The position numbers and the translations under genes are program-made. The notes under the pieces are model-generated. The model searched no databases, was not told the origin of the DNA, and worked only from the letters and a program-made list of their open reading frames with translations. Positions 4,202 to 27,613 of a stretch of 32,000 bases of DNA are shown one piece after another; position 1 is the first letter of the stretch, and each line of letters opens with the position of its first letter. The DNA comes from Geobacter sulfurreducens PCA (GTDB taxonomy: Bacteria > Desulfobacterota > Desulfuromonadia > Geobacterales > Geobacteraceae): contig NC_002939.5 in assembly GCF_000007985.2 (NCBI RefSeq), positions 2,310,001-2,342,000 on the forward strand, written 5' to 3'.

Positions 4202-4205
4202 ATCT

Positions 4206-5102
4206 CTATCCTCCTATGATGGTGGTCAGTCCTGCGGCGCGGAATATCCGCACCAGTTCTTCCATCCGCTCCCTGCTGGGGGTAGCGATTGCGTCATCAG
4301 CCCCTGCCCTGCCCAGCTGGCGGAGTTTGCCGTGCCAGGTGCGGTGATAGGGGAGCAGGTTCACCTGGCGCACCCCCGGCGTTCGTGCCGCCAGGGCGGC
4401 GGTGGCTTCCAGGTTGGCGCGGTCGTCGTTGACGCCGGGAATGATCGGGATGCGGATCCAGATGGTATCGTGCACCGCGCCGAGCGCCGCCAGGTTGTCC
4501 AGTACCATCCGGTTGTCCAGCCCAACCACGGCCCGGTGCCGTTCGGCATCCATCAGCTTCAGGTCGTAGAGGATCAGGTCGGCGGCAGTGGCGACCTCCA
4601 GGAACTGATCCCGCGGGGCAAATCCGCCGGTATCAACCGCCGTCCGGATGCCCCGCTCCCGGCAGCCGGCCAGGAGCGCCTTGAGGAAACCGGGCTGGCA
4701 CAGGGGCTCGCCGCCGGAAAAGGTTGCGCCGCCGCCCGACTCCTCGTAGAAGATCCGGTCCTTCAGCAGCGCGGCAAGCACGTCGGCCACGGTCATCTCG
4801 GTGCCGGCCAGGCGACGCGCGCCGGTGGGACAGGCATCCGCGCACCGGCCGCAGATCAGGCAGGCCGCCTCGCGCCCCTGCCCGCGGCCCGCGGTCCCGT
4901 GCGGGCAGGCCCGGGCACATTCGCCGCAGGAGAGGCAGCGCCCTTCCACCAGGGTCATCTCCGGGGCCGGCGCCTGGCTTTCCGGGTTGTGGCACCACCA
5001 GCAACTGGCCGGGCACCCCTTCAGAAACACGGTCGTGCGGATACCGGGGCCATCGGAGATGGAATATTTCTGGATATTGAAGACAATGCCCCGATCGATC
5101 AT
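4206..5102 (-). CDS. glycyl-radical enzyme activating protein (radical SAM, with 2x[4Fe-4S] ferredoxin-like insert)
   Basis: 298 aa. CxxxCxxC radical SAM motif in GCPASCWWCHNPES. Two extra Cys clusters (CLSCGECARACPHG, CLICGRCADACPTG) as in dehydratase-class GRE activases. SGGEPL SAM-binding motif. Sits directly upstream of the GRE gene. Confidence 0.93.
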   Translation of the reverse strand: MIDRGIVFNIQKYSISDGPGIRTTVFLKGCPASCWWCHNPESQAPAPEMTLVEGRCLSCGECARACPHGTAGRGQGREAACLICGRCADACPTGARRLAGTEMTVADVLAALLKDRIFYEESGGGATFSGGEPLCQPGFLKALLAGCRERGIRTAVDTGGFAPRDQFLEVATAADLILYDLKLMDAERHRAVVGLDNRMVLDNLAALGAVHDTIWIRIPIIPGVNDDRANLEATAALAARTPGVRQVNLLPYHRTWHGKLRQLGRAGADDAIATPSRERMEELVRIFRAAGLTTIIGG

Positions 5103-5946: not shown

Positions 5947-6307
5947 ACACGCACCTCCCCTAATGTGTTTACCAGCTCTGAATTGACAATTTATACCATG
6001 GAGCACATCCGCACGGTGAAATAACCGATAACCCCCCACATTACGTGCAGTTGTATGCGCTCAACCGCAGCTTGCCCCCACTGCCGTTACGGAACAACTC
6101 CTGCACCAGCGGCAACAGAGACAGATATCCAATTTTCAGCGCTTAAGATGCGGGATTGACGGAACGAGGACGCGGAACACATCTTCCGGTGTTTCGGTAG
6201 GGATTTCGTTTTCCCCCGGAAAAGCAAATCCCCGATACCGTATGGATACAGTACCGGGGACAGTTTCGCGAACAACCTCGTAACCATCTGAGATCGTTAG
6301 ATCTTTT

Positions 6308-6568: not shown

Positions 6569-8599
6569 TCAAGATAAGTTCAACGCCTTCGCAGCAGCAG
6601 TCTGGGGGTCAGAGAAAAACACAGGGTCAACCTTTTCCACGATCTCCCCGGATACTTCTAGGAAGTTGCGCTTGTTCTCAAGAGGAATGAGTGCCCGCTT
6701 TGCGCCGTTTTCCATTGCGATCTGAAGCGGTTCCGACAGAGAAGAGACCCCCTTTATGTTCCCTTGGATACTCAGGTCACCAAGGATCACCATTCCCGGG
6801 GCAACCTGGGTTTTCTTTATGGCCGATATGATGGCTATGATGAAGGCAATACCGGCTTCGCAACCTACCCGGTTGGTAAGAAGATCGATGGCTTCGACAT
6901 GGAAGTCCGTTGTATCGAAAATACTCGCTATCCCCATCGGAACCTTGTGTCCCTGAAGGAATCCGAAAGCGCGAGTAATGGATTCCTTCATCGTTGACTC
7001 CACGCCACCGGCAAGCTTCAATTTGCCGGTGCCGGCTGAGACACCCACTTCGATCCGATAGAGACCTACCTTGCCATCAGCATTGACGGATGCCGCATAA
7101 ACGGAGCCGGGTGCCAGCGGGTCAGTGGATATCAGGGCACGGCCACCTTCCTCGGGGACGCCGATGTAGCGTTCCTCCGTGCTCTCGTTGTCACGGTATG
7201 AGAAGGATGTCTGGTGGTACTCGAAGGAGCCCATCTTCTTGAGTTGTTCCTTCACCCGCCGCCGGCCCTCCATGGCGATGTCGACGGTCTCGGCCAGTTC
7301 GTCTTTAGTGAACTCACCATGAGGATAGAGCAGCTTGACGAGGCCAGACACCGTCTTGCGTACGGCCTTCACATCCCGGGCGTTCAGGTGGGCGCCGAAC
7401 GAGAAATATCGGTCGCTGACTTCAGTAAAGTTATGCCGGCGCAGTTCCCGCAGGGCCTCGGCAAGGTAGTCCACGACGAAGCCGTAATGCTGGGTGAAAT
7501 ACTCGATCCGCATCTTGGGGATTTCCCAGCCGGGGATGTAATAGTGAATCCGGTCCAGGAACGCCATGTCTTCCCTGACAATCTCCGGCAAAGGGATGAA
7601 GAGGTGTGAGGACTTCACCATCGTCTCCACAGGCTGGTTGGTGTTCCCGAACAGCGCAATGGATGCCATGCCGGAGAGCGACTCCTTGCCACGGGCGAAC
7701 GACCCGGACTCGCAGTACGTCTTCATCGTGGTTACGACTTCCTTGGGCATCTTCTCCAGATCGGCCACCTCATCAAAAGCCACCGCATCCCACAATCCCA
7801 CAAGCCCCATCTTATTGGTGGATATGTTGAAGAACAGGTTTGCCACGGTCGTCGGGCCGGTCATCAGAATGGCGTAGGGGCTCAACTCCTGATAAGCGTA
7901 GGACTTGCCGGTGCCGCGCGGTCCAAGCTCGACAAGGTTGTAGTTGGCCTCGCACAGCGGAATGAGCCGTATCAGAAACAGCAGCTTCAGCCGCCGCGTG
8001 AAATGCTCCGGCTCCATGCCGACGCTGCGGATCAGCATATCCACCCACTCTTCGGACGTGAACTGCCGACGTCCTTCTTGGTAAGCGTTTAAGTCGAAGG
8101 TGGCCAACTGAATAGGGGTGATGCTTTCAATCCAGAAGGGACTCCGGCGCCCCTTGGCCTCCTCGTCGTACTGGTGCCGGATCTCCATCTGCGCCCAGAC
8201 ACCGCCCATGAGCAGCCGATCGTACTCCCGTATGTAGCGTTCCGGAATATGCAGGTACTTGTGGCCGAAGTTGACGCATTCCGCCCAGTATTTGTCATCC
8301 TCTGCAAGGTAGCGGACCTTCACCTTGTCGATAAAGGTATGGCGCCCCTTCTCTCGGACCAGTGCTTGAGCCTTGTTCGCCTCCTCGGGGCGGACAAAAT
8401 TTTCGGCGAGGGTGTTGTTCACCACCCGAAGTCCCGCTTCCATTGCCGCCTCGTCGTCCGTGGCGCAGTATTTTCCCAGAAGGTATTCGAGGACAAATAC
8501 CGGCACGTTGGCCCCGACCTTGACCTTGCGCACCAGGTCCTTGCGCACCACCTTGCCGGAGAATACATCGACCAGCTTCTGGTCTAGAACATCGTTCAT
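6569..8599 (-). CDS. brxL: BREX Lon-like AAA+ protein BrxL
   Basis: 676 aa. The N-terminus MNDVLDQKLVDVFSGKVVRKDLV...VPVFVLEYLLGKYC is typical of BrxL. Walker A is LGPRGTGKSYAY. The C-terminal Lon-protease-like domain (ILGDLSIQGNIKGV...GAKRALIPLENKRNF) is present. Last gene of the operon. Confidence 0.92.
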   Translation of the reverse strand: MNDVLDQKLVDVFSGKVVRKDLVRKVKVGANVPVFVLEYLLGKYCATDDEAAMEAGLRVVNNTLAENFVRPEEANKAQALVREKGRHTFIDKVKVRYLAEDDKYWAECVNFGHKYLHIPERYIREYDRLLMGGVWAQMEIRHQYDEEAKGRRSPFWIESITPIQLATFDLNAYQEGRRQFTSEEWVDMLIRSVGMEPEHFTRRLKLLFLIRLIPLCEANYNLVELGPRGTGKSYAYQELSPYAILMTGPTTVANLFFNISTNKMGLVGLWDAVAFDEVADLEKMPKEVVTTMKTYCESGSFARGKESLSGMASIALFGNTNQPVETMVKSSHLFIPLPEIVREDMAFLDRIHYYIPGWEIPKMRIEYFTQHYGFVVDYLAEALRELRRHNFTEVSDRYFSFGAHLNARDVKAVRKTVSGLVKLLYPHGEFTKDELAETVDIAMEGRRRVKEQLKKMGSFEYHQTSFSYRDNESTEERYIGVPEEGGRALISTDPLAPGSVYAASVNADGKVGLYRIEVGVSAGTGKLKLAGGVESTMKESITRAFGFLQGHKVPMGIASIFDTTDFHVEAIDLLTNRVGCEAGIAFIIAIISAIKKTQVAPGMVILGDLSIQGNIKGVSSLSEPLQIAMENGAKRALIPLENKRNFLEVSGEIVEKVDPVFFSDPQTAAAKALNLS

Positions 8600-8607
8600 G
8601 GTAACTC

Positions 8608-11205
8608 CTATATTGCCAGTTCGACCGGCACTCCAGTCAATGAGGCAAGCAGCAGCTGGGACTCACAATCAACGGCACGGATTTCGATATGCTCAAGCTT
8701 TTTGGTTTCTGAGATCATAATCGTGACGGAATTGGGCTTCCCATAGTCCACAACTATCTCCCGCGAGCCTTCCTCAAATCCATAGGCAGCCATAGCCGTA
8801 TGACCAACCTCATCCTTGCCGGAAAGAATTTCCAGACGGACCCGTTTCGCCACGTCCGTGAAAAGCCCTTCCGCCTCCAGACTCACTGTGACTGAGAAGA
8901 AGCGATTCGTGATCTTGGGTTTGGCCAGTTGAAGTTTCAGATTAACCGTGATAACAGCAGATCGTTTTGGAGCCTTCGCCGTCAGCCGGCACACCGGGAT
9001 GATCTGCTCCTGCAAGGACGCGCCGCCGTGGAAATACGAGCAACCGCCACCCGGGACCTTGAAGATTCCCAGGCCCTTGGGAAATGCCAGCTCAAGGGGA
9101 CCGCCCAGCTCAAGGTCGCTTGCATTGACCCGGAAGAAGCCATCCGCAGCAACGCCACCCTGTCCGATCCAGACCCGGTCATGAAGAGCTATCGTTTTGC
9201 CGCCCGGCGGATCCATCTTCAGCCCAGATTCAAGCGCTTCGGCAAAGATGAAGCCATGGTCTGCGGCAATGACAAGTTCCATTATCCCCGCCTGGACAAG
9301 GTTACGCAGTCCCCGGCGCAACTTTTCGAGCACCTCGTCCATGTAGAGACGGGTTTCCTCATCTTCCCCCCCCTCTTCACCATGCCGGTCGATCTCCTGA
9401 GAGGTCACGATGACCAGTTGTGCCTCTGCCAGCTCCCTTTTCCGTTTCGGCGTCAAGCGCACAATATCGCCGAGCTTGAATACCTTGGTCGGTGAATCAC
9501 TTTTCTCCTGAAACCAGGTCACGCGGGCCGAACGATCATTCACCGTCTCTCCCTGTACACAGACGCGCATCCGCCCCCCGACAGCTTCGAGCGCGAGCCC
9601 GTTCTCAGCTGCGGGAAGAAGGGCTGCCATTCCCACGGAAGTTATGCCGGGCAACTGCCCCAGTGCCGGTTCGAGATGTACCGTAAAATCCGCACTCAGG
9701 CCCTCGCAGAGTTCATCGGCCATTTCGTACCGTAGGGCGTCAACCAGAAAATAGGCCACTTTGCCACCATCTTTGAGGAGCGGCGCCACGGCATTCCTGA
9801 ATGTTTGTGACTGTTGGTCGAATCCCGCAGGGGTAAATCCTTCCCTCTCCAATGCCCCGCTGTACGCTTCCGCCAGCACCGCCAGGGTGTTCGCATACTC
9901 GACCCGGCATTGGTGCATCAATTCATCCATGCCAGCATCATCAGTAGAACCGAAGGTTTCGCAGCGGACATAGCGGCTTTCCAGGTGACGCGCATAACGA
10001 TCCAAGAGCATCCACGGCTCACCATGACGCGTATAAGCCGTTATCAGTTCTTCGGCAGTAAATTTGCGCCGTTTCAGAGCATCGCAAATCAAGCCTGATA
10101 CTTGGAGCAGCCTGGCCGCCACCTCAACGAGGGACCAACGCAGACTGATTTCGGGATAGACACGGCTCCAGAAAGAGGCTCTGCGCTCCTTGGCCAGAGC
10201 CAGCGGCGAGTCTGTGTCCCTCTGGGCCAAGTTGTTTCTTGCGGACAGCAACAGACGGTATTCGATGAAGGGAAATGTTTCGAGACCACGAAGCGCTTCT
10301 GTTGGAAAAACCGCCTTATCCAGCTGCGTCATTGCCTGGACGTTTTCGGCAGTCTCGCGGTAGGCTTCTTGGAGATCCAGGCGCTGCCGCCAGACATTCA
10401 GAACATGACGGATCGTGTCGAACTGGACTGGTTTCCGGGGGAGAGCAATGGTAGATAACGAGGGAGGAAAACCCTCTTCCGGTAGTCCCTGGATCAACTC
10501 GCACAGGAGCAGATGCCGGCGGATGGCCGTTCGCAGTTCCGTCGCCGTTGGTATCAGCTCGACATCCAGCCCAAGCTCTTCGCGGGCCACGACAGCCAGC
10601 TCGCTTAGGCTGTGCTTTTTCTCAAGCTTCACATCGAACTCATTCCCGGCCAAGAAGGAAAGGATCACATCCACCGGCGATGCTGCGCCGAATATGAGTT
10701 TGAGTGCCCCGGTGGTTACTGTACCCGCCTCCTCGGCCATCTGGTCGAGTTCCGCAAGTGTCAGCAAACCTTCTTCGGTCTGGCGTGCCACATGGGCCGC
10801 CTTTTCCGGGGCTACTCCGTTGAAGACCTGTTCAACCAGGCTAGAAAGCCGCGAATTACGATCCGCTGTCGGCGCGCCAGGCTCAACCACCGCTCCGACC
10901 GATTCAGCCTCGATGAGGGCAAAACCTGTTTCACTCCGTGACTTCGGGACATAGACAATCAGCTTGGGTGGCACGCCGCAATCGTCCTGGGGGCGGCCGT
11001 CTTCGGTGACGAACTCCAGGAACTGCTCCATCCGCTCCCGTAAGGGGAAGAAGCCATTTTCATAACACAGTACGGTCGTCTCCGGAATTTGCAGGCGTTT
11101 TGCCAAGCCGTCATAGACCTTCTCCGAGTCGTACCAGACGACGATCCCCCGCTCTTTGACTTGGCGGTTCAGCAATTCACAAACCTTGTCGGAAACCTTA
11201 CCCAT
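8608..11205 (-). CDS. pglZ: BREX alkaline-phosphatase-superfamily protein PglZ
   Basis: 865 aa. PglZ-domain block VAYFLVDALRYEMADEL...ITSVGMAALLP...IAADHGF. Position between pglX and brxL; 8-nt gap to brxL. Confidence 0.9.
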   Translation of the reverse strand: MGKVSDKVCELLNRQVKERGIVVWYDSEKVYDGLAKRLQIPETTVLCYENGFFPLRERMEQFLEFVTEDGRPQDDCGVPPKLIVYVPKSRSETGFALIEAESVGAVVEPGAPTADRNSRLSSLVEQVFNGVAPEKAAHVARQTEEGLLTLAELDQMAEEAGTVTTGALKLIFGAASPVDVILSFLAGNEFDVKLEKKHSLSELAVVAREELGLDVELIPTATELRTAIRRHLLLCELIQGLPEEGFPPSLSTIALPRKPVQFDTIRHVLNVWRQRLDLQEAYRETAENVQAMTQLDKAVFPTEALRGLETFPFIEYRLLLSARNNLAQRDTDSPLALAKERRASFWSRVYPEISLRWSLVEVAARLLQVSGLICDALKRRKFTAEELITAYTRHGEPWMLLDRYARHLESRYVRCETFGSTDDAGMDELMHQCRVEYANTLAVLAEAYSGALEREGFTPAGFDQQSQTFRNAVAPLLKDGGKVAYFLVDALRYEMADELCEGLSADFTVHLEPALGQLPGITSVGMAALLPAAENGLALEAVGGRMRVCVQGETVNDRSARVTWFQEKSDSPTKVFKLGDIVRLTPKRKRELAEAQLVIVTSQEIDRHGEEGGEDEETRLYMDEVLEKLRRGLRNLVQAGIMELVIAADHGFIFAEALESGLKMDPPGGKTIALHDRVWIGQGGVAADGFFRVNASDLELGGPLELAFPKGLGIFKVPGGGCSYFHGGASLQEQIIPVCRLTAKAPKRSAVITVNLKLQLAKPKITNRFFSVTVSLEAEGLFTDVAKRVRLEILSGKDEVGHTAMAAYGFEEGSREIVVDYGKPNSVTIMISETKKLEHIEIRAVDCESQLLLASLTGVPVELAI

Positions 11206-11220: not shown

Positions 11221-14200
11221 TTACGCCAGCCCGTGGGCGATGGCGAATGACTTGTTCGTCTTGCACTTTTCCCGTACCCGTTCGGGCCAATGGTCCATGG
11301 CCTGTTGCGCCCAATCGTATTTCCCTTCGGCAAGCTCCTGCCAAGCCTTCTGAGTCTCCGGCCAGCTCGGCAGAAGAGTATGCAGTGGAGCTGCGTTGAG
11401 GAGCACCCCATCGTCGATATGTGGGGTGTATCCGGCCTGAAGGATGTCTTGAAGGTTTTTCGAAAAATCTCGCAGATCGTCGGAGAGCTCGAGGAGCTTG
11501 TCGAGTTCTTTCGCCACACTGCGATTGCTGGCTGCCACGATTCGTTTGTCGGCGATCTCCCGCTCCAGCATGCGCAGGCGCTCCTCTACCATTCTACGTA
11601 CTTCGAAGAGGGAGTTGGTGGTGAAGCGTTCCTGGAAAATCCAGACGGTGAATTTTCTTTTTGGCGACTGCAACGGCCAATAGATGGGGCGTTTGCGGTA
11701 GAGCTGGTAATGATAGCGCCAGTACGAAACCTCTGGCTGACCAGTGAAGCGATCCAGGAAGCCGCGCAGAAGGTTCTCCGGCACGCCGTCGCCGCCGGTG
11801 GCTGCACGGACGAGCCTCCGCGCAGTATCCTCCCCACGCATGAGTTCCAGAATTCGCAGAGTCCGAGACACGATGTCCTGGGGATGGCCGGCGTCCGAAG
11901 GCATGATCCCGTCAGAGTCGATGAGGGCGCTGATGGCGGCAATGGTCGCAGCATCAAAGTTTCCTCGCCCCAAGCCCTCGGGCTCGCCAATCCGGTATCT
12001 GCCAAGGGCCATGCCGAAAGCATAACTCACCCAGGCGCGGGCAAGCGATAAGTCGGTCCACGCCCCTGCGACGGTTTCCTCTTCTTCCTCTGTATCACCT
12101 TCTTCTTCATTATTATCTTCAGCTACAGCCTTTATTCCCTCCAGTTCGGTTTTGAGGGCAAGACGGTCCGCTTCATCCAGACCGTAGAGGCGAGTGACCT
12201 CCTGGTCAATCTCCTCCTCGATTCGTCGCAAGCGGGCATGTCTCTCGTCTACTTCCGTTACACAAAGCGGCGGGTGAATAAAGTCGTAGGTCCGTTCGCT
12301 GTCGGAGCTGTCCTTTTGAGCCAATGATACTGATTCTTCAACTTTAGCTTCTAGGTCCTTGGAAGACTTGCTGGGGATTGGCAGGCGTTCGATATCACCT
12401 ACTTGAAAGGAAATGGTGGGATTCAAGGCGCTCAGGATAAACTTCGCTGTGGTCGAGTTAAAAATGCCAAGGACTTCATTGAGCGATTCGTCACTCGGAT
12501 AGCACGTCATGCCTTTTACATCATGAATAAACCCACCTGGGGATAACCGCCCTGCAAAACCTTTGGGGCTTACATCGCTCCACGTCACGCCTTTTCGGAA
12601 ATAGAAGGTGGGGTTTCTAACAACTGCCCTGGGACAGAAGGCCCGTATTTCAACACCATCCATCTTCCAGTTAACAACATGTTCATGATTCCCATTCCAA
12701 GGGATGGGTGCTCCGCCTTTCATATAAGGAATCCATTTAACTCCAGAACGCTTGGTGTCTGAGCATGAAGTCGCATTTCTGGCAATATGATTCACCCCAA
12801 TTTCCCACCATTTGCGGAGGAAACGCGTATTATCCCCTGTCTGAAGACCAACCTTGGGTGGGGCAACAACGGAAAGGAGGCGACCTTGGCGGAAAAGCTC
12901 CTGAATCTTTTCAGGCATCCAATAAACCCAGGGCTTTTCTGGTATGGTGTCGTAGTCAATTTGGCGGTAGGTGAAGACAATTGGAGTGGTCATGCCTGAA
13001 CGCATAGCGGAGACTGCACCCTCAAAAGCTATTTGCTTGGCTACAGCATCCCTCTCGCGCACTAGGCGGAAGTACACCCCACAGTGCTCCTCCAGCGACT
13101 TTCCATCCGGCTCACGCCGAATAACGAAGGCAGTTGTATTGACTTTCTCTCCAGTAATATTGGGAAAGGCTTTAGGCCCCAGATGCGCCATCGTCTCAAC
13201 AGTCACTCTAGAAAGTAGGTTGCTTCGGAATTTCTCATAAGTCCCGATGAACATGAACGATTGCTGCGTTACCATGGCCACCTTTCCCTGTGGTGCAACC
13301 AATTCCAAACATCGGGCAATGAAGGCGGCGTATAGGTCACCCTTCGTTTCAGGGTAATGTTTATCAAGATGCTTAGCGATGACATCGGACATGTTCCGGC
13401 GGCTCATATAGGGCGGATTGGTCGCTACAACATCATAATGGTGAGAGACCAACTGCATGTATCGCAATCCTTTGGCAGCTTCGTTTACAATATGGCCAGG
13501 GTCGCCTCCCATCTCTCGTGACGCACGAACAAAAAAGTCAAGATGCCGCAGCAACTGATCAGAGAGGAGATCAAAAAACTCCTCAATGCCTGCTTGGGTA
13601 TCAAATTGCTCTGGCGATATCCCGGGAAATGAGAGAAGAAACTGCTTATTTTCTTCCGCCTTACGGCGTTCTTCGATCACCAGTCTCTCCAGACTCCTCT
13701 CCAAACGGAGGAGACTACCAAGCTGGTCCGAATCCTTCATCTCAGCGGCAAGGGTCCGGAGAACACGTTCATAGATGGGGTGACTGAATTTAGCAGCAGC
13801 AATGAGAGTCTCAAGCTTGCCGCCGCTGGTTTGTTCGACGTTCGCACAGGCAAGATTACGGTCAGTAAAGGCACATTTGGGGCTTAAAGTTCGCGCACGC
13901 AATAAGAGTGTAAGAGCGGAAATCTGGACGGAACGAAGGTCGATATCAATCCCATGCAGATTATGAGCAATGATACTGCTCGCAATTTCATCTTCAGCAT
14001 TAACGGAAGGGTTCTCCGGCCAGCCGGGCTGTCCCGCCTTTTCAAATTCCTCACGATACATCTCAGCGAAGAGGTCGAATGCTACCAGACCGAAATGCAT
14101 TGACCCGCATGAGGGGTCAAGGAATGTAATATCACGTACCAGCTTCAGCGGATGGGCTTGAGAGTTCTCTATTGGCACGAGGTAAGAGAGCGAATCCTTG

Positions 14201-15033
14201 AGCCTACTGTCAGGATGCATCTCAGCCCATAATCGTCCCAGCGAGTTTTCCACCAGAAACCGAACGATCCAGCGAGGGGTGAACCGCTGAGTCGCCGCGC
14301 CGATTTCCTCGGCAATGACCTTTTTCCCTTTGCTGAATTTCTTAAAGACAGCCTCGTTTTCATCTTCAATAAAGCCTTCATAAACCCACCCGAGGGTTTC
14401 CTCATTACCCGGTTTCCAAGCTTCTATACGGGCTTCGGTGTTCATGGATTCAGCGAGTTGCTTGACAATCGCTGGCCGGGGGAAGAGGCGGGTAGGAAGT
14501 GTGGATGGGTCAAAGAGCACGGACACATCGCGGGCAAGCTCGCCGCACTGCCAGAGGATGAATCGGCGATACGCCACGTTGCTGGGGCCTTCACCCATTG
14601 GGTTAAGCGGCAGGTCGCCTTGCTGATGCAGCTTGTAAACCTCTTCATTTCCTTCAGCAGTGAGCCAGAAGATGAATCCATTGGACTTGTCTATTTTGGC
14701 AACAATTTGCTTCAAGAGCTTGCGCTCTTCAAGGAGGCGGAAGGCAACGAGGCGGTTTAGCCAGGTGAAGGCAGTCTCGCGGACGATCTTGCGACGGGAA
14801 TCAACAGAAGAAAAACCGGCAGCTTTTTCTTCCTCTGCATAGTGTTCCAGTTGGAGGCGCGTTTCTCGGGCCTCGTCAAGCTGATGAATAGCCGGATAAC
14901 GGGATGCATCGGCAAAGGAACCGTCGGGCAACCAGCCGTAGATACCTTGAAGTTGCTCATCGGTCTCCCGCTCAAGAAGAGCACGATTTGCAAGGGTGAA
15001 TTTCTGTATGTCGGCAACGAAAGTATCGTTCAT
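11221..15033 (-). CDS. pglX: BREX adenine-specific DNA methyltransferase PglX
   Basis: 1270 aa. SAM-binding motif I-like FLDPSCGSMHFG and catalytic motif IV VATNPPYM. Size and position are typical of type 1 BREX PglX. Confidence 0.93.
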   Translation of the reverse strand: MNDTFVADIQKFTLANRALLERETDEQLQGIYGWLPDGSFADASRYPAIHQLDEARETRLQLEHYAEEEKAAGFSSVDSRRKIVRETAFTWLNRLVAFRLLEERKLLKQIVAKIDKSNGFIFWLTAEGNEEVYKLHQQGDLPLNPMGEGPSNVAYRRFILWQCGELARDVSVLFDPSTLPTRLFPRPAIVKQLAESMNTEARIEAWKPGNEETLGWVYEGFIEDENEAVFKKFSKGKKVIAEEIGAATQRFTPRWIVRFLVENSLGRLWAEMHPDSRLKDSLSYLVPIENSQAHPLKLVRDITFLDPSCGSMHFGLVAFDLFAEMYREEFEKAGQPGWPENPSVNAEDEIASSIIAHNLHGIDIDLRSVQISALTLLLRARTLSPKCAFTDRNLACANVEQTSGGKLETLIAAAKFSHPIYERVLRTLAAEMKDSDQLGSLLRLERSLERLVIEERRKAEENKQFLLSFPGISPEQFDTQAGIEEFFDLLSDQLLRHLDFFVRASREMGGDPGHIVNEAAKGLRYMQLVSHHYDVVATNPPYMSRRNMSDVIAKHLDKHYPETKGDLYAAFIARCLELVAPQGKVAMVTQQSFMFIGTYEKFRSNLLSRVTVETMAHLGPKAFPNITGEKVNTTAFVIRREPDGKSLEEHCGVYFRLVRERDAVAKQIAFEGAVSAMRSGMTTPIVFTYRQIDYDTIPEKPWVYWMPEKIQELFRQGRLLSVVAPPKVGLQTGDNTRFLRKWWEIGVNHIARNATSCSDTKRSGVKWIPYMKGGAPIPWNGNHEHVVNWKMDGVEIRAFCPRAVVRNPTFYFRKGVTWSDVSPKGFAGRLSPGGFIHDVKGMTCYPSDESLNEVLGIFNSTTAKFILSALNPTISFQVGDIERLPIPSKSSKDLEAKVEESVSLAQKDSSDSERTYDFIHPPLCVTEVDERHARLRRIEEEIDQEVTRLYGLDEADRLALKTELEGIKAVAEDNNEEEGDTEEEEETVAGAWTDLSLARAWVSYAFGMALGRYRIGEPEGLGRGNFDAATIAAISALIDSDGIMPSDAGHPQDIVSRTLRILELMRGEDTARRLVRAATGGDGVPENLLRGFLDRFTGQPEVSYWRYHYQLYRKRPIYWPLQSPKRKFTVWIFQERFTTNSLFEVRRMVEERLRMLEREIADKRIVAASNRSVAKELDKLLELSDDLRDFSKNLQDILQAGYTPHIDDGVLLNAAPLHTLLPSWPETQKAWQELAEGKYDWAQQAMDHWPERVREKCKTNKSFAIAHGLA

Positions 15034-15044
15034 GGCGGTCCCAT

Positions 15045-15884
15045 TCAGGTTGATGATAGCGTTGCCTGTGCAAGCTTTTGTTCTTCACGTTGTGAAATTA
15101 TCAGTTCCAGCTGTTCGATGGCCTTTTTGAAGACATCTGAACTGGCTGAAACAAAAGATTGAGCAGTAGTTACATGGGTATTCGCCCACGCGTAGGACAT
15201 TATTCTAAGCCCGTGAGCATCAATATCCTCTGGAGGAGTTGAATCATCAGGACGGTCAGCACGATGGACAATCAGATTGCGACGTAGAACGAGACCATTG
15301 AGTCTACCCCTAAGCTCAGTGGCTTGGACGCCAGTCAGCTTAGTAATTTCACCCCAGAAATCGCGAACAACAAAAATTTTGGCAATCTCATCTATCTTGC
15401 TAGTGTCATACAACGTTCCTCTTTCAAAGCGGTTCAGGATTATCTGCTGCAACCTAACATCTGGATCTCCATATCCTTCTAAAGACAAATAATCATCCAG
15501 AGTCAGGGTAATATTTCGAAGTGATTCATCTGCTTTGCGACCCTTTGCACGAATAATGGTCAATACGTTTTCCCGCAAGACATCCCAAAAGAAGGATTCC
15601 AGAGCAGCACTTGCGACGAGAACAGCCTGACGAAGAAGAAAATTCAGCCCTTCATTGGCGGTAAGGCATGATGGTAGAGGTACAGTTGCCTTTACACTGC
15701 AAAGTAAATTGTCATTTTTCGCATGGTGCAAGGCTGAACCTGATGCCAGCTCCAAACGCTCACAAACTGCCAACTCAAAAGGCTTACCAGGATCATATGG
15801 ACGAAGGTCCCTGAAAAGCTGGTAGAGTTGGAGTAGATGTTCTGCTATCGCAAAATTCTGAATAGCCAGATCATAGGCGCGCAT
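15045..15884 (-). CDS. extra BREX-embedded protein with R-x4-H (HEPN-like) motif; function unknown
   Basis: 279 aa, ATG start, same strand. Gaps are 7 nt from the brxC stop and 11 nt to the pglX start. RRNLIVHRAD at aa 201-210 (nt 15255-15284) fits the HEPN Rx4-6H signature. Visibly more AT-rich than brxC. Confidence 0.8.
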   Translation of the reverse strand: MRAYDLAIQNFAIAEHLLQLYQLFRDLRPYDPGKPFELAVCERLELASGSALHHAKNDNLLCSVKATVPLPSCLTANEGLNFLLRQAVLVASAALESFFWDVLRENVLTIIRAKGRKADESLRNITLTLDDYLSLEGYGDPDVRLQQIILNRFERGTLYDTSKIDEIAKIFVVRDFWGEITKLTGVQATELRGRLNGLVLRRNLIVHRADRPDDSTPPEDIDAHGLRIMSYAWANTHVTTAQSFVSASSDVFKKAIEQLELIISQREEQKLAQATLSST

Positions 15885-15891
15885 ACCGTCC

Positions 15892-18800
15892 TCACTCCAG
15901 GATTATGGTTCCGCCCTGGGCGAGGACTTTGGAAAGGCGCTCCCGCAGGTTAGTGATGAAATCCTCCAACTCATCCTTGCTGGTGATGCGACCGGGATAA
16001 AGCCTGGCCACCGCGACCCGCTCAATCTTTTCTTCCGGAGCAGCCAGTTCCAGGATGCGACGAAGCACGTCTCTGCCGACTGCCTCCACCGCAGCCAGGT
16101 CGCTCTCCAGCTGGGCCAGGGTGGCGCCGGTCCGTTGACATACCGTAGCCCCATGGGGAAGGTCGAGAACAGCCTCAGCCTTCAGGGTCAGCGGCTGGAG
16201 AATAAGGTCCAGCTGTTCCTGTGCGATATCGGGGTCTTCGGCAACGGCGAGCCATTCGGGACGCCCCTTGATCTGGTCAAGAGCTGCTGTGTAGGCAGCT
16301 TTGCGCTTTTCAAACAGGTTCTCGTACAACGTTCGGTAGGCATTGCTGAGAGATTCACTGTAAAAGCGGAGGTTATCGATCCGGGCAAGGGCATCTTCCG
16401 ACTGTAACGTCTCACCCAGTTTTTCGGCCGCATCCTTCAGCTCTGGATCGTCATTATTCAGGACGAGAACAGGCCATTGTTCCATCAAAACCCGTCGGGC
16501 TCGTGCTATGGCCTGGATATTTTCATCGGTGGCCGCTTTATCCAATGCAAAAGACTGCCGACGCCCCTCAAGATAAGCCTTGCCATCGCCTGCCAGGGTT
16601 TTCACGCAGTCATCGGCGGGCATCTCCAGAATACCCTCGACCCAATTAAGCTGTTCCTGCACAATCTTGGCACCGGGCAAACTGAGAGCGCCCAGGCGGG
16701 CGGCCAGAGGGAGGAGCTTTTCGCGGTCGGAAACTACAATCTGCTTGAATGCCTGGGCAATCGCCCCCTCCTCGATATCCACATCCCTACCGGAGATTTC
16801 TTCATACATCCGCGCTGCATTGGCTAGGACTTTGAGATCGAGCGCCTCACGCGGTGAAAAAGAAGCAGACCGAAACGCAGGATTGTTCACGAACGGGACT
16901 CGCGAGGTCGGCTCGGTATAGTTACGGTATTTGCGTCCCTGATGGGTAACCTCTATGGCGCCGCCGCGGAAAAGGATGGCAAGTCCCAGGCGGATGGACT
17001 CCCGCTCCCAGGCGTAGCCGAGGCCGCTGAAGTGGGACTCCAGCATTTTTCCGGTTATCCGGTTGCCGTATGCATGTTCACGCTTCAGGTAGTCGAGAAG
17101 TTCCCGACAGAGCTCGCAGCCAAGGTTAGGCACAAAGCGGTCGGCCTGCTTTATGACGAGGCTCCGCTCGGCCTTGTCGTGGTAGAAGATCTGAGGAAGG
17201 CCGTTGAGGTTAGCTGAAGTGAGAAACTTCACCGGCTCATCGCCGTTGAGCCTGAGCACCCCGACCTCCAGTTTCGGGTAGAGGACCGGTACCGCCCTCT
17301 CAAGCAGCGTACCAAGGGACTCGGAAAGGGACGAACCGAGTACCGGGGCGTCGTAGCTGACTCCGCTGAAGAAGGCGTTCCCCCCCTCGATGCAGGCGAG
17401 AAGCTTGGAGCGAAGATTTCTTTGGGTACGATCGCGCCGGCTTTTTTCATCAGCGAGACAGCCGGTCTCCTCAACCGTCAGACGCTGCTGTGCTGCGAGC
17501 CGGTCATATTCCCCGATCATCTCTCGCGAACGGAAGAGCTCAGTTACGAGGGAGTTGATTTCGTCGGTGAGCGTTGCCACCCAGAACAGCTCAGTTGTTT
17601 TGGAGACGCTCGCCTCGCGGGCGTCGACCAGGGTATCCTGATGCTCCTCCCTGGCCGTAAGGAGGATGTTGAGCGGAATTTCCCCCTCTGACTCCACCCA
17701 CTCGCCATTGACAAGTAAGCTGGTGCGGAAGCCACGGAGGTCCTTGTAGCGGTAGGTACGCAGTTTCGGCTCAGAAAAAATCTCGCGAATCAACTCTCGA
17801 TGAATTCGGTTGCGATCGGCCTCACGAGGGTCGCGCCCGTTGCGTTGCGTTTCCCAGTTCTTCTCCTGAACGGTGAGAAGTTTGTACCCTTCCTCGGATT
17901 GGCGGATAAACTGCGCTTCTTCAAGCTCCTTGAGGGCAGCCACCACGTCTTTGGTCAGTGGGTTTGCTTCTATGGACGGATGGAGCACAACCGCGATGTT
18001 ATGGGGAGTCCTTGGCAGGTCCTTGACGGACTCAAGGAGTGCGATCGCCTTCACGACCTTATGGGCAAGCGGGTTACCCGGCAATCGCTGGGCAACGTTG
18101 GCCACCTCGCGGGAGACCTCGGTGGGGAGCAGATTGCCGACCTCCAGCAGTTCATAGACCTTGTCCAGCGTGACGAGCGTACCGATGGGCTGCTCGGCCA
18201 GGCGCGTGCGGTCATTGATCATCATCTGCTGGGCCTGCTTGATGATCGTCCGGTTGCTGCCGCCGACGTGCCGATGGGCGCCCCGCTTGAGGCGCAACCC
18301 GGCAACGATGTCGATACATAGATCGATCTGGTAGGGCAGATAAGGATAGAGCCTGACAAAGGATGATCGATTGATTTCCAGGTTCCGATGGGTGCGTTCC
18401 AGAGTGCAGCACTGCTTGATTCTGGGTTCATCGGCATCGAAACGTTTACCGATGAGGTCCACCGCTCCGGCCTTTTTCTTCAAGACACGTTCGCTGGTGA
18501 CTTCGGTTATGTCGGATTGCTTGAGATCCACCGTGATACGGAAACGGTCCTGGAGACGCGCCAACTCGATTTTTTTGGAGTCGAGGGCCGTGACCACTTC
18601 GTTCAGCTTTTCCTGCGAAGTGACGACGATCCAGAATGGCGAAACAGCCTCCTGGCGTTCGGTCCGGTTTTTCCCTTCGACGCCAAATGCCTGGATAATT
18701 GCCTGAAGATCGAGCATCTTGTCCACACTGCGAGAAACATACTGTCCCACCTCGTCGATTATGAAGATAAGGGCCTTGCCAGGATGGCGGCGCGCACACA

Positions 18801-19536
18801 ATTCAAAGGCTCGACGGGCCAGCTTGTTCGGGTCGACATCGGCCCGGCCGGCTCCGATTCCCTGGGCATACGAGTCGGCAGTAGGGTAGGTTCTCGGGTC
18901 GAGATCGTGTAGCGCGGCACCGGCCTCATTGATTGCCAGCCCCAGCTGGCGGCGTTTCTTCCACTCCGATCCGTGCAATTCCAAGAACTTCCGTTCGAAA
19001 GCTTCGAGACGACCGTCTCCCTCCAAAGTTATCTCCAGTTCGGCCAGATCGAAGTCTTCCGCATAACCCAACTCCCGGAGCAGCGCGCGATACATGATTT
19101 CTGTGAGACGGTCATTGGTGGCGCGCACACCGCGATCCATGGAAACGTCAAAAATGACCGCATGGAAAGGGATTCGCATGGTAACGAGATCGAGCAGGTC
19201 TACGACGCGGGCATCTCGCAGCCTTTTCTTGAAGAGCTCGGTAGCAGTTGTTGCGCCTACCTTCTGCTGGGCGACAGTGTAGCCAAGGATCTTGGCGAAA
19301 GATGATTTACCTGAACCGAAGAAACCTGAAACCCATACGCCAATCCCCTCTCGAGGTGTAGACGGACCGGCAGCTATCTCGCGGTAAACCTCGGCAAATT
19401 GGTCCTTAATTGAATCCGTCGCGATATACTCTTCGAGCTCATTTTGGACAGTAGCCTCGTTCGCCTGGTCAACTTTGATGACCTCTTCGATGGTACGATC
19501 GATGGGTCTTTCAAAGACATCAGCAATCCTGTTCAT
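15892..19536 (-). CDS. brxC: BREX P-loop ATPase BrxC/PglY
   Basis: 1214 aa. Walker A in VWVSGFFGSGKSSFAKILGY and Walker B-like LIFIIDEVGQY. ATGA start/stop overlap with brxB. Confidence 0.93.
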   Translation of the reverse strand: MNRIADVFERPIDRTIEEVIKVDQANEATVQNELEEYIATDSIKDQFAEVYREIAAGPSTPREGIGVWVSGFFGSGKSSFAKILGYTVAQQKVGATTATELFKKRLRDARVVDLLDLVTMRIPFHAVIFDVSMDRGVRATNDRLTEIMYRALLRELGYAEDFDLAELEITLEGDGRLEAFERKFLELHGSEWKKRRQLGLAINEAGAALHDLDPRTYPTADSYAQGIGAGRADVDPNKLARRAFELCARRHPGKALIFIIDEVGQYVSRSVDKMLDLQAIIQAFGVEGKNRTERQEAVSPFWIVVTSQEKLNEVVTALDSKKIELARLQDRFRITVDLKQSDITEVTSERVLKKKAGAVDLIGKRFDADEPRIKQCCTLERTHRNLEINRSSFVRLYPYLPYQIDLCIDIVAGLRLKRGAHRHVGGSNRTIIKQAQQMMINDRTRLAEQPIGTLVTLDKVYELLEVGNLLPTEVSREVANVAQRLPGNPLAHKVVKAIALLESVKDLPRTPHNIAVVLHPSIEANPLTKDVVAALKELEEAQFIRQSEEGYKLLTVQEKNWETQRNGRDPREADRNRIHRELIREIFSEPKLRTYRYKDLRGFRTSLLVNGEWVESEGEIPLNILLTAREEHQDTLVDAREASVSKTTELFWVATLTDEINSLVTELFRSREMIGEYDRLAAQQRLTVEETGCLADEKSRRDRTQRNLRSKLLACIEGGNAFFSGVSYDAPVLGSSLSESLGTLLERAVPVLYPKLEVGVLRLNGDEPVKFLTSANLNGLPQIFYHDKAERSLVIKQADRFVPNLGCELCRELLDYLKREHAYGNRITGKMLESHFSGLGYAWERESIRLGLAILFRGGAIEVTHQGRKYRNYTEPTSRVPFVNNPAFRSASFSPREALDLKVLANAARMYEEISGRDVDIEEGAIAQAFKQIVVSDREKLLPLAARLGALSLPGAKIVQEQLNWVEGILEMPADDCVKTLAGDGKAYLEGRRQSFALDKAATDENIQAIARARRVLMEQWPVLVLNNDDPELKDAAEKLGETLQSEDALARIDNLRFYSESLSNAYRTLYENLFEKRKAAYTAALDQIKGRPEWLAVAEDPDIAQEQLDLILQPLTLKAEAVLDLPHGATVCQRTGATLAQLESDLAAVEAVGRDVLRRILELAAPEEKIERVAVARLYPGRITSKDELEDFITNLRERLSKVLAQGGTIILE

Positions 19537-20132
19537 TTATCCACTCCGTATATTTTGACCCGATAGTTGTACACGCCGAGATTAGCCTCCGAAGGGAGGT
19601 CAAAAAATTTCAGATCCGTCCCAGCCTCAGCGCTCCCCGGATAAAAAAGAATGACCGGCACTTTTGTCCTGCGATGCAGCCCATCGAGAAGACTAGAGCA
19701 GCGATAGATAAATGGAGCGAAGCCGCCGGCACGGACCAGGAAAACGATATCACGGTCGTGATCGAACCCTTTGATACGTTCCAGTACTTCATCGGCTATA
19801 GGACGGTAGTCTTCGGAACTGAGAAGACGATTTATATGTTCCTCAGCAGCTTGGAATCCCCTGATGGACTCAGTTTTGAAGAGATAGTCCGTACCCTCGA
19901 ACCGGCGCACGATACCCCACACAAGTCGTGAGATTGAGAGGAACGCTACTTTGCGGCCATGATTCTCAGAAAGGGAATAGGCCAGCAAACGGAGACGCTT
20001 GCGCAGCTGGAACTCTTCTTCCGGAGAGTAGCGGAAAATCGCGAAGGGCATATCGCTGTGGGCCGCAATCCGCATTGGCTCAGCGACCAGATCCTGGCGT
20101 AATAGATCAAGATTCTGTTCCAAAGATGACAC
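19533..20132 (-). CDS. brxB: BREX protein BrxB (DUF1788 family)
   Basis: 199 aa, GTG start preceded by AGGA. Size, position between brxA and brxC, and N-terminal pattern (LDLLRQDL...MPFAIFRYSPEEE) are typical of DUF1788/BrxB. Confidence 0.85.
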   Translation of the reverse strand: MSSLEQNLDLLRQDLVAEPMRIAAHSDMPFAIFRYSPEEEFQLRKRLRLLAYSLSENHGRKVAFLSISRLVWGIVRRFEGTDYLFKTESIRGFQAAEEHINRLLSSEDYRPIADEVLERIKGFDHDRDIVFLVRAGGFAPFIYRCSSLLDGLHRRTKVPVILFYPGSAEAGTDLKFFDLPSEANLGVYNYRVKIYGVDK

Positions 20133-20925
20133 GTATGTAGTCCTTGAAGTCGTTTGTCGGAAACTCTATCCGGTGGACACGACCAGCCGCCTGATAGTGC
20201 AACCAGCCATGCTGGTGTGCCTCGAAAAAAAGCCGCTCCACTTCCGGGCCAGCCAACAAGAACAATTTCCAGTCCGAATGTTCCACCAGCTCGCGCGCCC
20301 CGATCCCCATCAGGTTAAGGAGAAAGGCAATCAAACAGAAGGTCTCGATTGGCAGATGGCCGTGCACAAGCCTCTTGTTCACGGCACCTTCGAGAATCGC
20401 AAAGTCGCGGAGTGCGGCCAGGATTCCCCTTGCTACTTTTAGTTGCACCGTGGGAGACCAGACTCTACCGCATGAACGGAGCGTGTTATTGATCCAGGAT
20501 GCTGTTTCTTCCGTTCGTACTGCCCGGTCGGAAGTTTTCGCCTTTTCTACAAGCTCTTCCGTCACATATGCATAGAGGATAGGTTCTGCCCGCGCGGTTA
20601 TCCAGTAATAGAATGGTCGAATTATCTCGATGCTTGGGTGTGCTTCCTCAAGTGCTCTGGCGAGTTTCCACGCATCCTGCGGCGAACCTTTCAGGAATCT
20701 CGGTAAGAATGCACGTCTATAGGTGTCTGCGACTCGCGAACGAGTGGCCTTGTGCAAAATCTCGCCAGCCTGACTTTCCGGTTTAGCAACAGCCTCTGTC
20801 CACTGACAAACCAACTGCCGCATGTCGTCCAGCAATGCTCCTCCTTTTTGGAGGCGAGTTGTAAATATTGCATCATTGGTCAGCATCAAACTTATCCTCA
20901 TATACCGAATCGTTTTTTTTACCAT
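20107..20925 (-). CDS. brxA: BREX protein BrxA (DUF1819 family); start uncertain
   Basis: The ORF is open to 20991, but its first ~13 codons lie inside the palindromic repeat 20953-21125. Candidate starts are ATG 20925, 20901 and 20886 (the last has AGGA 8 nt upstream). First gene of the BREX operon; overlaps brxB by 26 nt. Confidence 0.75.
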   Translation of the reverse strand: MVKKTIRYMRISLMLTNDAIFTTRLQKGGALLDDMRQLVCQWTEAVAKPESQAGEILHKATRSRVADTYRRAFLPRFLKGSPQDAWKLARALEEAHPSIEIIRPFYYWITARAEPILYAYVTEELVEKAKTSDRAVRTEETASWINNTLRSCGRVWSPTVQLKVARGILAALRDFAILEGAVNKRLVHGHLPIETFCLIAFLLNLMGIGARELVEHSDWKLFLLAGPEVERLFFEAHQHGWLHYQAAGRVHRIEFPTNDFKDYIRVIFGTES

Positions 20926-20952
20926 GAATACTTTTACCAGGCCATAAATTTT

Positions 20953-21125
20953 CCTGATTAGCACCAATCTTCCGCAAGCCTCCACAAACATTCCCTCCCC
21001 CTTGACGGGTTAGGGTGGGGGTGACAGTGCCACGATCACAGCCAGTTGCAACTTCACCCACCCCCTGCCCCCTCCCGTCAAGGGAGGGGGAGATTCCTGG
21101 TGGCTGAAGCTTAGTGCTAATCAGG
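20953..21125. repeat. ~173-bp palindromic MITE/REP-like element
   Basis: Perfect 12-bp terminal inverted repeat CCTGATTAGCAC (20953-64) / GTGCTAATCAGG (21114-25). Inner arms are CCCTCCCCCTTGACGGG (20993-21009) vs CCCGTCAAGGGAGGGGG (21074-90), and GGGTGGGGGTGA vs TCACCCACCCCC. The whole unit can fold as one long imperfect hairpin. Confidence 0.7.
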
Positions 21126-21148: not shown

Positions 21149-21538
21149 TCATTGAAGGAACTGCTCACGGAATGCATTCTCGATGGCGGCGAAAAATGCA
21201 TCATTAGTGGCGTTCCTGCCACCGTCAAGGACGCTTCCATTGTAGATATTGCCAGTCTCTTCTCCACTTGCCACATGGGTAAACGTTACTGCTGCCGCGA
21301 CTACCATCATCGAATGGGATTCATCCGGGCCCTTAATGTGAAGGTGCTCCCTTGAACCCAAACACGTACTGATTCCAACACCATGCTTCGCTAGTACCGG
21401 CAGAACCAGCCGCACGATGTCAACCTGTTGTCCCATCCTCGGATCTCTGAGCTGCTCCCGTACCCAGCCAAGCTCATTCCTGATCTTGTCCATTGCCTTA
21501 TCAATCTCCTGTTTCCCGCCTTTAGCTGCTTCATTCAT
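21149..21538 (-). CDS. hypothetical protein (129 aa), second gene of a coupled pair upstream of BREX
   Basis: ATG preceded by GGGAGGTG. ATGA overlap with the upstream gene's stop. No recognisable domain. Confidence 0.65.
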   Translation of the reverse strand: MNEAAKGGKQEIDKAMDKIRNELGWVREQLRDPRMGQQVDIVRLVLPVLAKHGVGISTCLGSREHLHIKGPDESHSMMVVAAAVTFTHVASGEETGNIYNGSVLDGGRNATNDAFFAAIENAFREQFLQ

Positions 21539-21900
21539 TTGACACCTCCCGTAATCCCCGCTGCAACCTGAGCACGTTTGATTGACTGCAATCCGACACG
21601 CTTGAACATAGGCAACACTACCACTGCCCCCCTACCATTTAGAATTTGCTGAATCTTGACCCGGAACTCGCCGAGAAAATGCGCAAACTCCGCGTCGGGA
21701 AACGCCCCACTGTCACCCGTATCCCGTTGACGACGACTGACAAATCCGAATAGCGCCAGACGGTGGAATGAAAACTCATCATCCATCAACAGCCGTTGCC
21801 ACTGCCGAGCCACCATTTTCGGCATTGTTGCAGTGGTTACATCCAGGTGCCCTTCGATCCACGCCGTCATTCCCAATTCCCTGTTCCTGCTGATTGCCAT
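21535..21900 (-). CDS. hypothetical protein (121 aa), first gene of a coupled pair upstream of BREX
   Basis: ATG preceded by GGGGAGG at 6 nt. Divergent from the XRE regulator gene. No recognisable domain. Confidence 0.65.
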   Translation of the reverse strand: MAISRNRELGMTAWIEGHLDVTTATMPKMVARQWQRLLMDDEFSFHRLALFGFVSRRQRDTGDSGAFPDAEFAHFLGEFRVKIQQILNGRGAVVVLPMFKRVGLQSIKRAQVAAGITGGVK

Positions 21901-21946: not shown

Positions 21947-22005
21947 AAGTGAATTATACCATTCACTTTTATAAAAGTAAACAACAAAATTCACAGTTAT
22001 GAATT
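21947..22005. promoter_or_regulatory. candidate operator sites in the divergent promoter region
   Basis: AAGTGAAT-N6-ATTCACTT (21947-21968) and AATTCA-N6-TGAATT (21988-22005) share the half-site ATTCAC. They lie in an AT-rich 110-bp gap between the 121-aa gene and the XRE gene. Confidence 0.4.
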
Positions 22006-27594: not shown

Positions 27595-27613
27595 AAAGAA
27601 AATGGGGAGAACG

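Follow-up and report, generated by a model that had tools for sequence, protein, structure and literature searches.

What does an extra gene, encoding a predicted ribonuclease (RNase), do inside an otherwise canonical bacteriophage exclusion (BREX) operon? The question is raised by a stretch of 32,000 nucleotides (nt) from Geobacter sulfurreducens PCA (NC_002939.5, positions 2,310,001 to 2,342,000; hereafter the window, whose own numbering is used throughout), in which an open reading frame (ORF) of 279 codons with an ATG start lies at 15045..15884 on the minus strand, between brxC and pglX. How BREX stops phages is still unsettled. An earlier examination of the nucleotide sequence (the original prediction) had proposed that this gene encodes a HEPN RNase, acquired separately from its neighbors, that would add an abortive-infection or toxin layer to BREX. 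In the present analysis, a position directly 3' of brxC is found to be obligatory for this gene in one lineage of BREX systems. The reading preferred here, with a probability of roughly 0.6, is that this lineage-old, brxC-linked HEPN gene encodes an RNase effector controlled by BREX or by BrxC, which would provide an abortive-infection or back-up layer.

The gene is embedded in a complete type 1 BREX operon, all six core genes of which were identified by PADLOC and Pfam on the minus strand between 6569 and 20991. Its upstream partner is brxC (15892..19536; PADLOC BrxC, 842 bits), which encodes the BREX P-loop ATPase and whose product is 100% identical to the Geobacter sulfurreducens protein named 'BREX system P-loop protein BrxC', and its downstream neighbor is the BREX methyltransferase gene pglX (11221..15033, minus strand; PADLOC PglX, 677 bits; Pfam Eco57I and N6_Mtase). 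Spacing is tight on both sides. The brxC stop codon ends at 15892, leaving a 7-nt gap before the ATG of the HEPN gene, and a Shine-Dalgarno-like GAGGA within the segment GGAGTGAGGA (15885..15900, minus strand) overlaps this stop and spans the last brxC codons and the spacer. On the other side, 11 nt separate the HEPN stop codon from the pglX ATG at 15033. A consensus scan revealed no promoter-like or terminator-like site within or beside the HEPN gene, which is consistent with, although short of proof of, cotranscription with the BREX operon; translational coupling within the operon is also probable. The arrangement described in the original prediction, namely an additional same-strand gene fitted closely between brxC and pglX of a canonical type 1 operon, was confirmed together with both gap lengths.

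The significance of the HEPN assignment derives from a profile match and from conservation rather than from the motif, since an R-x4-H motif arises in 37% of shuffles of this protein. The only Pfam hit is PF18735 (HEPN_RiboL-PSP), with a score of 39.4 bits (E = 7.6e-10) against a curated gathering score of 28.4 bits, covering residues 77-216 of the protein and positions 23-167 of the 191 positions of the profile. Of 32 divergent relatives, with identities as low as 18%, 30 also match this family, and the weak secondary hits of these 32 proteins include the HEPN families Apea, Cthe2314, MAE_28990 and HepT amid unrelated chance hits. The predicted RNase active-site motif, R201-R202-N203-L-I-V-H207-R-A-D210 (15255..15284, minus strand), contains RRNLIVH at residues 201-207, with R202 to H207 encoded at nt 15281..15264, exactly where it had been placed before. 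It also carries a polar residue (N203) immediately after the arginine of Rx4-6H, as the HEPN motif requires.

Conservation is concentrated on this site. Among 76 close homologs, R201, R202, N203, H207, R208, A209, D210, R211 and P212 are all invariant; in a wide alignment of the 32 relatives extending to 18% identity, H207, D210 and L84 remain invariant, while R201, R202 and R85 are conserved in at least 90%. In the 103 BREX-linked genes recovered from contigs, R201, R202, N203, H207 and D210 are intact in all 101 that cover the site, the other two being truncations. The retention of R202 and H207 that the original prediction would lead one to look for was therefore observed. A second conserved block, L83-L84-R85-Q-A-V ... 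A-L-E96-S-F-F-W100-D-x-L-R-E-N106 (15567..15638, minus strand), is located within a long helix (residues 81-126), with R85 present in 103/103 and an acidic residue (E or D) at position 96 in 102/103 BREX-linked genes. The Ex3[KR] spacing typical of HEPN helix 2 is absent, and R85 and E96 may represent the upstream basic or acidic residue of a HEPN active site.

Public annotation agrees with this assignment. The protein (WP_010942752.1; AFP20453.1) is an exact match to a G. sulfurreducens 'HEPN domain-containing protein' at NCBI, and its UniRef name is 'RiboL-PSP-HEPN domain-containing protein'. As had been suspected, it does not correspond to a named BREX component: searches against the named BREX and defense models of PADLOC and NCBIfam, at E values up to 10, gave no hit. 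The protein is a single domain lacking an antitoxin or sensor domain, and its gene has no MNT neighbor and no ATPase neighbor except BrxC. Taken together, the profile, conservation and structural models described below make it well supported that the extra gene encodes a stand-alone HEPN-superfamily protein, assigned to the RiboL-PSP-HEPN family (PF18735) by the Pfam threshold, in agreement with the original prediction.

AlphaFold models of the full-length protein (predicted local distance difference test, pLDDT, 85.5; predicted template modeling score 0.80) and of a trimmed core (residues 77-279; pLDDT 88.3) are nearly all helical; an additional helix and a beta-hairpin region are present N-terminally, and the C-terminal helix is long. 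In these models, helix 188-208 carries RRNLIVH at its C-terminal end, and a loop leads from there to the long helix 231-278. In HEPN domains, the Rx4-6H motif is found at the end of a helix, before the loop to the last helix (PMC3710099), and the modeled position of the motif fits this topology. Foldseek searches of the full-length model against the Protein Data Bank (PDB) and BFVD, and of the core against PDB, returned only noise, with template modeling (TM) scores below 0.36. The structural comparison suggested by the original prediction therefore matched neither a HEPN fold nor any alternative fold, and because of this the HEPN call rests on profile, motif and helix topology.

These results bear on the question of whether the protein is HEPN at all, or instead has another helical fold with a coincidental RxxxxH and a mis-assigned Pfam family. 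That three Foldseek searches on two confident models yielded noise would fit such a view, as would the frequency of Rx4H in shuffled sequences. In addition, PDB sequence profile searches with the HEPN alignments found nothing significant; PF18735 was itself defined by sequence analysis, and no sequence-related solved structure was recovered in the PDB searches. However, the profile scores above the curated cut-off for 30 of the 32 members, the weak cross-hits point specifically to other HEPN families, and the one PDB hit of interest, at a non-significant E value of 0.2, aligned the RN.IVH motif to the HEPN defense protein ApeA. Moreover, no other feature of the family is as conserved as the motif, which is located where HEPN motifs sit. 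A non-HEPN protein is accordingly considered very improbable.

The evidence for a functional connection with BREX comes mainly from gene neighborhoods. A scan of one genome per species, using patterns derived from the HEPN alignment, identified 17 loci in Verrucomicrobiota, Victivallales, several Desulfobacterota, Armatimonadota, Acidobacteria, Planctomycetaceae and Hyphomicrobiales. In all 17, only a few nucleotides separate the HEPN gene from brxC upstream of it, and pglX comes next in every contig that extends far enough. When the distant branch (25-30% identical to the window protein) served as the seed for a metagenome scan, 80 further loci were added, and every one with usable flank has the HEPN gene directly after brxC. 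When counted over the loci that were found through the HEPN protein only and that have at least 400 nt of upstream sequence, brxC lies directly upstream on the same strand in 80/80, across many phyla and down to approximately 25% identity. Seven apparent exceptions in the automated count were artefacts of the ORF-start rule, brxC being present at those loci as well. In 73 related loci, the gap between brxC and the HEPN gene has a median of about 3 nt when the farthest possible start codon is taken as the start of the HEPN gene.

The downstream side is less constant. The next gene is pglX in 59 loci, pglZ in 7, and none in 2; in many relatives, the HEPN stop codon overlaps the pglX start. Unusual gene orders are also seen among HEPN-bearing loci (L021, L026, L081, L084 and L096; L059, L064, L068 and L074): one group possesses two pglX genes in the order brxA-brxB-pglX-brxC-HEPN-pglX'-pglZ-brxL, and in the other, pglX has moved ahead of brxC and pglZ comes directly after the HEPN gene. 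Considering the varying downstream gene and the loci in which pglX precedes brxC, the conserved link is to brxC and not to pglX. The position between brxC and pglX emphasized at the outset is thus a recurrent arrangement on its upstream side and a variable one on its downstream side.

The same data must be weighed against a rival view, in which the HEPN gene is an autonomous toxin or defense gene hitch-hiking in a BREX insertion hot-spot and acting independently of BREX. BREX loci are known to gather unrelated modules at the brxC/pglX and pglX/pglZ junctions, both in a 2026 survey (PMC12839542) and in loci collected here; the HEPN gene has been lost without loss of the operon, as described below; and the third-position GC content (GC3) of the window copy is deviant. 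The family also has members elsewhere. Its most distant branch, which has about 20% identity and the motif RRNQIVHEAD, lies outside BREX: one member (L099, 5742-12522) is located between hsdS and hsdM of a type I restriction-modification (R-M) operon, with 4-nt overlaps on both sides and with hsdR and a Fic gene upstream, in a PrrC-like layout; another (L098) lies beside a helicase and an nSTAND3 NTPase; and a third (L100), apparently solitary, has no defense gene directly beside it, a type II R-M pair being located about 5 kb upstream. Against an autonomous gene, brxC is upstream in 80/80 at gaps of a few nucleotides over many phyla and to 25% identity, with only the downstream gene changing. 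The HEPN clade of BREX loci was not found away from BREX in the sampled genomes and metagenomes, so that its members occur strictly in defense loci, as the proposed role in defense had implied; the protein brings neither sensor nor antitoxin with it; and a single clade in the BrxC tree, together with co-divergence with the operon, fits a mobile cassette poorly. On balance, independence from BREX is regarded as unlikely.

The phylogenetic distribution of the gene was examined from the side of BrxC. In a neighbor-joining tree, the BrxC proteins of HEPN-bearing loci all group in one clade, with outgroups that lack the gene. Among close BrxC homologs (60-71% identity), chosen regardless of the presence of the HEPN gene, five of seven carry it. 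By contrast with the 97/97 positive controls in which the same hidden Markov model detected the HEPN gene, the gene was present in none of the 69 IMG/VR loci that were found through BrxC alone, most of whose BrxC proteins are only 20-30% identical to that of the window. No detectable HEPN homolog was present in the plasmid collection, whose 295 BrxC proteins are all less than 27% identical to the window BrxC, and viral contigs yielded only 12 weak, distant HEPN relatives, none of them belonging to the BREX clade.

Several observations within this clade weigh against the preferred reading of a BREX-controlled effector, in addition to the lack of a Foldseek match. Four HEPN-less loci (L102, L103-L105) nest inside the HEPN-bearing BrxC clade, and two further loci, L172 and L177, also lack the gene, which indicates that it is dispensable for upkeep of the operon. 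In L177, pglX follows brxC directly, and in L172 no HEPN remnant was found in the 290-nt non-coding spacer between brxC and pglX. In L016 (delta proteobacterium NaphS2; 10001-10465), truncation of the HEPN gene leaves only the first 155 residues, which end ahead of the catalytic motif, and the start of pglX comes next without delay. The BREX operon of this locus is otherwise intact, and the truncated copy appears to be a decay or deletion variant. Finally, co-divergence is not specific to BrxC: pairwise distances of the HEPN protein correlate with those of BrxA at r = 0.91, BrxC at 0.76, PglZ at 0.73, PglX at 0.61 and BrxL at 0.31. A mirror-tree signal was accordingly rejected as evidence of contact with BrxC, since the HEPN protein co-diverges with the whole operon and there is therefore no partner-specific signal. 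The single HEPN-bearing clade with nested HEPN-less loci suggests one gain of the gene followed by some losses. As judged from these trees and distances, the HEPN gene is a long-standing accessory component of one type 1 BREX lineage and has been kept vertically.

This history also bears on the composition of the window copy. The HEPN gene is indeed more AT-rich than brxC (GC 0.451 and GC3 0.375, versus 0.568 and 0.660), as the original prediction had pointed out. However, its proposal of a separate acquisition is not upheld. In 56 relatives, the GC content of the HEPN gene is on average just 0.024 below that of brxC, and in the nearest relative, BrxC is 87% identical while the HEPN protein falls in the same 90% cluster (at least 90% identical); a 10,034-bp JGI contig is common to the nearest-relative lists of both proteins. 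Because the two genes are similarly distant in the nearest relative and the bias among relatives is small, a recent independent insertion is not supported. A recent separate acquisition inferred from AT-richness was consequently rejected, given the small bias in relatives, the ancient pairing with brxC and the co-divergence with the operon.

With these constraints, a mechanism can be outlined for the preferred reading. The HEPN protein would be a metal-independent endoribonuclease whose activity the BREX complex, most plausibly via BrxC, would normally restrain; it would be unleashed on host or phage RNA once BREX is triggered, overwhelmed or inhibited by a phage. The outcome would be translation arrest together with either abortive infection or a reduced burst, in a back-up layer analogous to PrrC, the HEPN anticodon nuclease that guards the type Ic R-M system EcoprrI and is kept silent by it. 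We infer RNase activity, control by BrxC and an abortive or back-up role. Related systems provide a background for this proposal. PrrC is inactive within its type Ic R-M system until the T4 Stp peptide disables the latter and sets PrrC free, and HEPN domains linked to R-M systems are coupled to subunits of the ATPase, helicase or nuclease kind rather than to methylases (PMC3710099). In BREX-related systems, HEPN domains are fused to the BrxC-like DUF499 ATPase (PMC3710099; PMC12839542), and a phage inhibitor acting through BrxC has been described (PMC11580459).

A predicted RNase with a perfectly conserved motif has thus been kept on the 3' side of brxC despite deep divergence and despite rearrangement of the remainder of the operon. 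That a motif-intact HEPN gene stays at this site points to BrxC as the partner controlling the effector. A more specific version, held only tentatively and doubtful at present, would make the HEPN protein an integral, BrxC-gated effector, with BrxC releasing or activating the RNase after sensing unmethylated DNA or an anti-BREX inhibitor. If so, this BREX variant would work at least partly by RNA cleavage and growth arrest; such gating would offer a concrete output step for BREX, whose effector mechanism is debated, and would make the RNase a natural 'guard' of BrxC.

Two roles other than that of a liberated effector would also agree with a protein lodged so tightly in the operon. In the first, the HEPN protein would be a non-catalytic subunit, binding RNA or other nucleic acids or serving as a scaffold in the assembly or regulation of a BrxC-PglX complex. 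Some HEPN domains, such as that of MtlR, are non-catalytic binders (PMC3710099); the tight coupling on both sides, including the HEPN stop/pglX start overlaps of many relatives, suits a stoichiometric subunit; and the long conserved C-terminal helix, with an invariant EEQ.LA in the close clade, resembles an interaction surface. Nevertheless, R-N-x3-H and D210 are strictly kept, whereas non-catalytic HEPN domains typically lose the motif (PMC3710099), and BREX loci of the same BrxC clade exist without the gene. A non-catalytic role is therefore judged improbable. In the second, an operon-internal RNA processor would adjust subunit ratios or expression by cutting either the transcript of the BREX operon or one particular host RNA. 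The location of the gene at the boundary between brxABC and pglXZ-brxL, the lack of an antitoxin, and the very low GC3 of 0.375, which could limit expression of the gene itself, are indirectly in line with such a processor. However, a role of this kind is not reported in the descriptions of HEPN in R-M and BREX systems given in the available text of PMC3710099 and PMC12839542, and loss variants keep the operon order; the chance that the protein acts in this way appears slight. The preferred reading remains that of an RNase effector under the control of BREX or BrxC.

The remaining parts of the operon in the window are brxA (20107..20991), brxB (19533..20132), pglZ (8608..11205) and brxL (6569..8599), all on the minus strand and assigned by PADLOC and Pfam. 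By consensus match only, a promoter-like site, TTTACT-17-TATAAT with an upstream TG, is located upstream of brxA (21953..21981, minus strand), and a terminator-like hairpin follows brxL (6228..6261, minus strand). Between the promoter-like site and brxA are two small overlapping ORFs on the minus strand (21149-21538 and 21535-21900; 129 and 121 aa), which matched nothing in Pfam or PADLOC, nor, by tblastn, in the 97 related BREX loci; they may be lineage-specific regulators or spurious. Within pglX, the GC content drops to about 0.49 over a stretch of approximately 1.5 kb (12200-13700), versus 0.55-0.58 elsewhere in the operon, and this stretch may represent an exchanged specificity region.

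Just past the 5' end of the operon are two tyrosine-recombinase (phage integrase family) genes on the plus strand (25804-27330 and 27602-28975). In view of these two nearby integrase genes, the BREX locus is probably located on a genomic island; no tRNA gene, sought as an island boundary, was found in the window. Adjoining the island is a gene for a pyruvate-formate-lyase-like glycyl radical enzyme (786 aa) with its radical-SAM (S-adenosylmethionine) activase (1841-5102, minus strand), which are ordinary genes of anaerobe metabolism.

Related loci accommodate other insertions. In BREX loci of the HEPN clade, the pglX/pglZ junction is a second insertion slot, which is occupied by a pair consisting of an ABC-type ATPase (AAA_21/AAA_15) and DUF4276 in L007 (14695-16505) and L173 (14370-15648), by a DUF4276-type ORF in L016 (15442-16167; assigned by likeness to L007, not by a Pfam scan), by a DUF4062 and HATPase_c_4 protein in L002 (14866-16290), and by a Schlafen/AlbA_2 and HATPase_c_4 protein in the HEPN-less locus L172 (13737-15413). 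Moreover, L043 (6394-15230) and L049 (5994-14757) each contain an inserted block of about 9 kb that separates pglX from the HEPN gene. In L043, this block encodes a 1466-aa DEAD/Helicase_C/MZB protein, a UvrD-like helicase, an RNase H-domain protein and one more ORF, and the ORFs of L049 resemble those of L043 in size and sequence. The block is probably another defense system lodged inside BREX.

With respect to previously described systems, the novelty is low to moderate, and the novelty attributed to the gene in the original prediction was not borne out: the HEPN annotation already exists in RefSeq and UniProt, and the idea of HEPN in Pgl or BREX operons has been published. As early as 2013, HEPN genes in Pgl operons were noted, with the suggestion of a suicide or burst-limiting function (PMC3710099), and the 2026 survey (PMC12839542) refers to stand-alone HEPN modules in BREX loci as 'backup suicidal effectors'. 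Both of these resemble the present case in having HEPN inside the core operon, with core genes on either side, and in proposing an abortive or back-up RNase. However, the Pgl-operon HEPN families of the 2013 paper are pEK499_p136 and RloC (PMC3710099), and neither the strict attachment to brxC nor the distribution over one clade nor this family is described in the running text of the 2026 survey, its neighborhood table aside. These three, the strict linkage to brxC, the restriction to a single clade and the defined family, are what is new here.

The closest family, RiboL-PSP-HEPN (PF18735), was defined as 'Ribo L-PSP-HEPN' by Anantharaman et al. in 2013 (PMC3710099) and shares with the window protein the Rx4-6H motif, the polar residue after the arginine, the all-helical architecture, the bacterial distribution and the defense or R-M contexts. 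The members described there are fused to endoRNase L-PSP or are in operons with ParB (PMC3710099), whereas the clade of the window consists of stand-alone proteins of about 280 aa encoded just 3' of brxC. Small size, a stand-alone domain and an intact Rx4H are also features of HEPN-MNT toxin-antitoxin systems. However, the window gene is flanked by brxC and pglX with no nucleotidyltransferase hit in its neighbors, and since there is no MNT gene, the protein is not an HEPN-MNT toxin.

A further parallel is offered by the HEPN-DUF499 ATPase fusions of BREX-related (Hma) systems, defense systems containing a methyltransferase in which a BrxC-like AAA+ ATPase and a HEPN RNase are joined, as they are here by gene adjacency (PMC3710099; PMC12839542). 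In those fusions, the HEPN domain is attached N-terminally and belongs to the Abi2/Swt1 family, while here a separate gene of the RiboL-PSP family lies 3' of brxC; no HEPN fusion was found among the 150 listed of 499 family representatives (72-396 aa). Given the separate gene and the different HEPN family, the window protein is not of the DUF499 fusion type.

The most instructive comparison is with PrrC in EcoprrI, likewise a HEPN RNase encoded in the middle of the operon of a methylation-based defense system, where it stays latent until a phage disables that system (PMC3710099). PrrC carries an N-terminal ABC-type NTPase regulator and resides in a type I R-M system, whereas the window protein belongs to another HEPN family, has no ATPase domain and is hosted by BREX; lacking an ATPase domain, it is not a member of the PrrC/RloC group. 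By analogy, we infer that it would nevertheless work like PrrC in EcoprrI. Such a role would extend the PrrC-style rule, by which a HEPN RNase guards a methylation-based defense system, from R-M to BREX, with a defined family and clade, and its value would lie in a sharper, testable hypothesis on the output of BREX rather than in a new kind of system.

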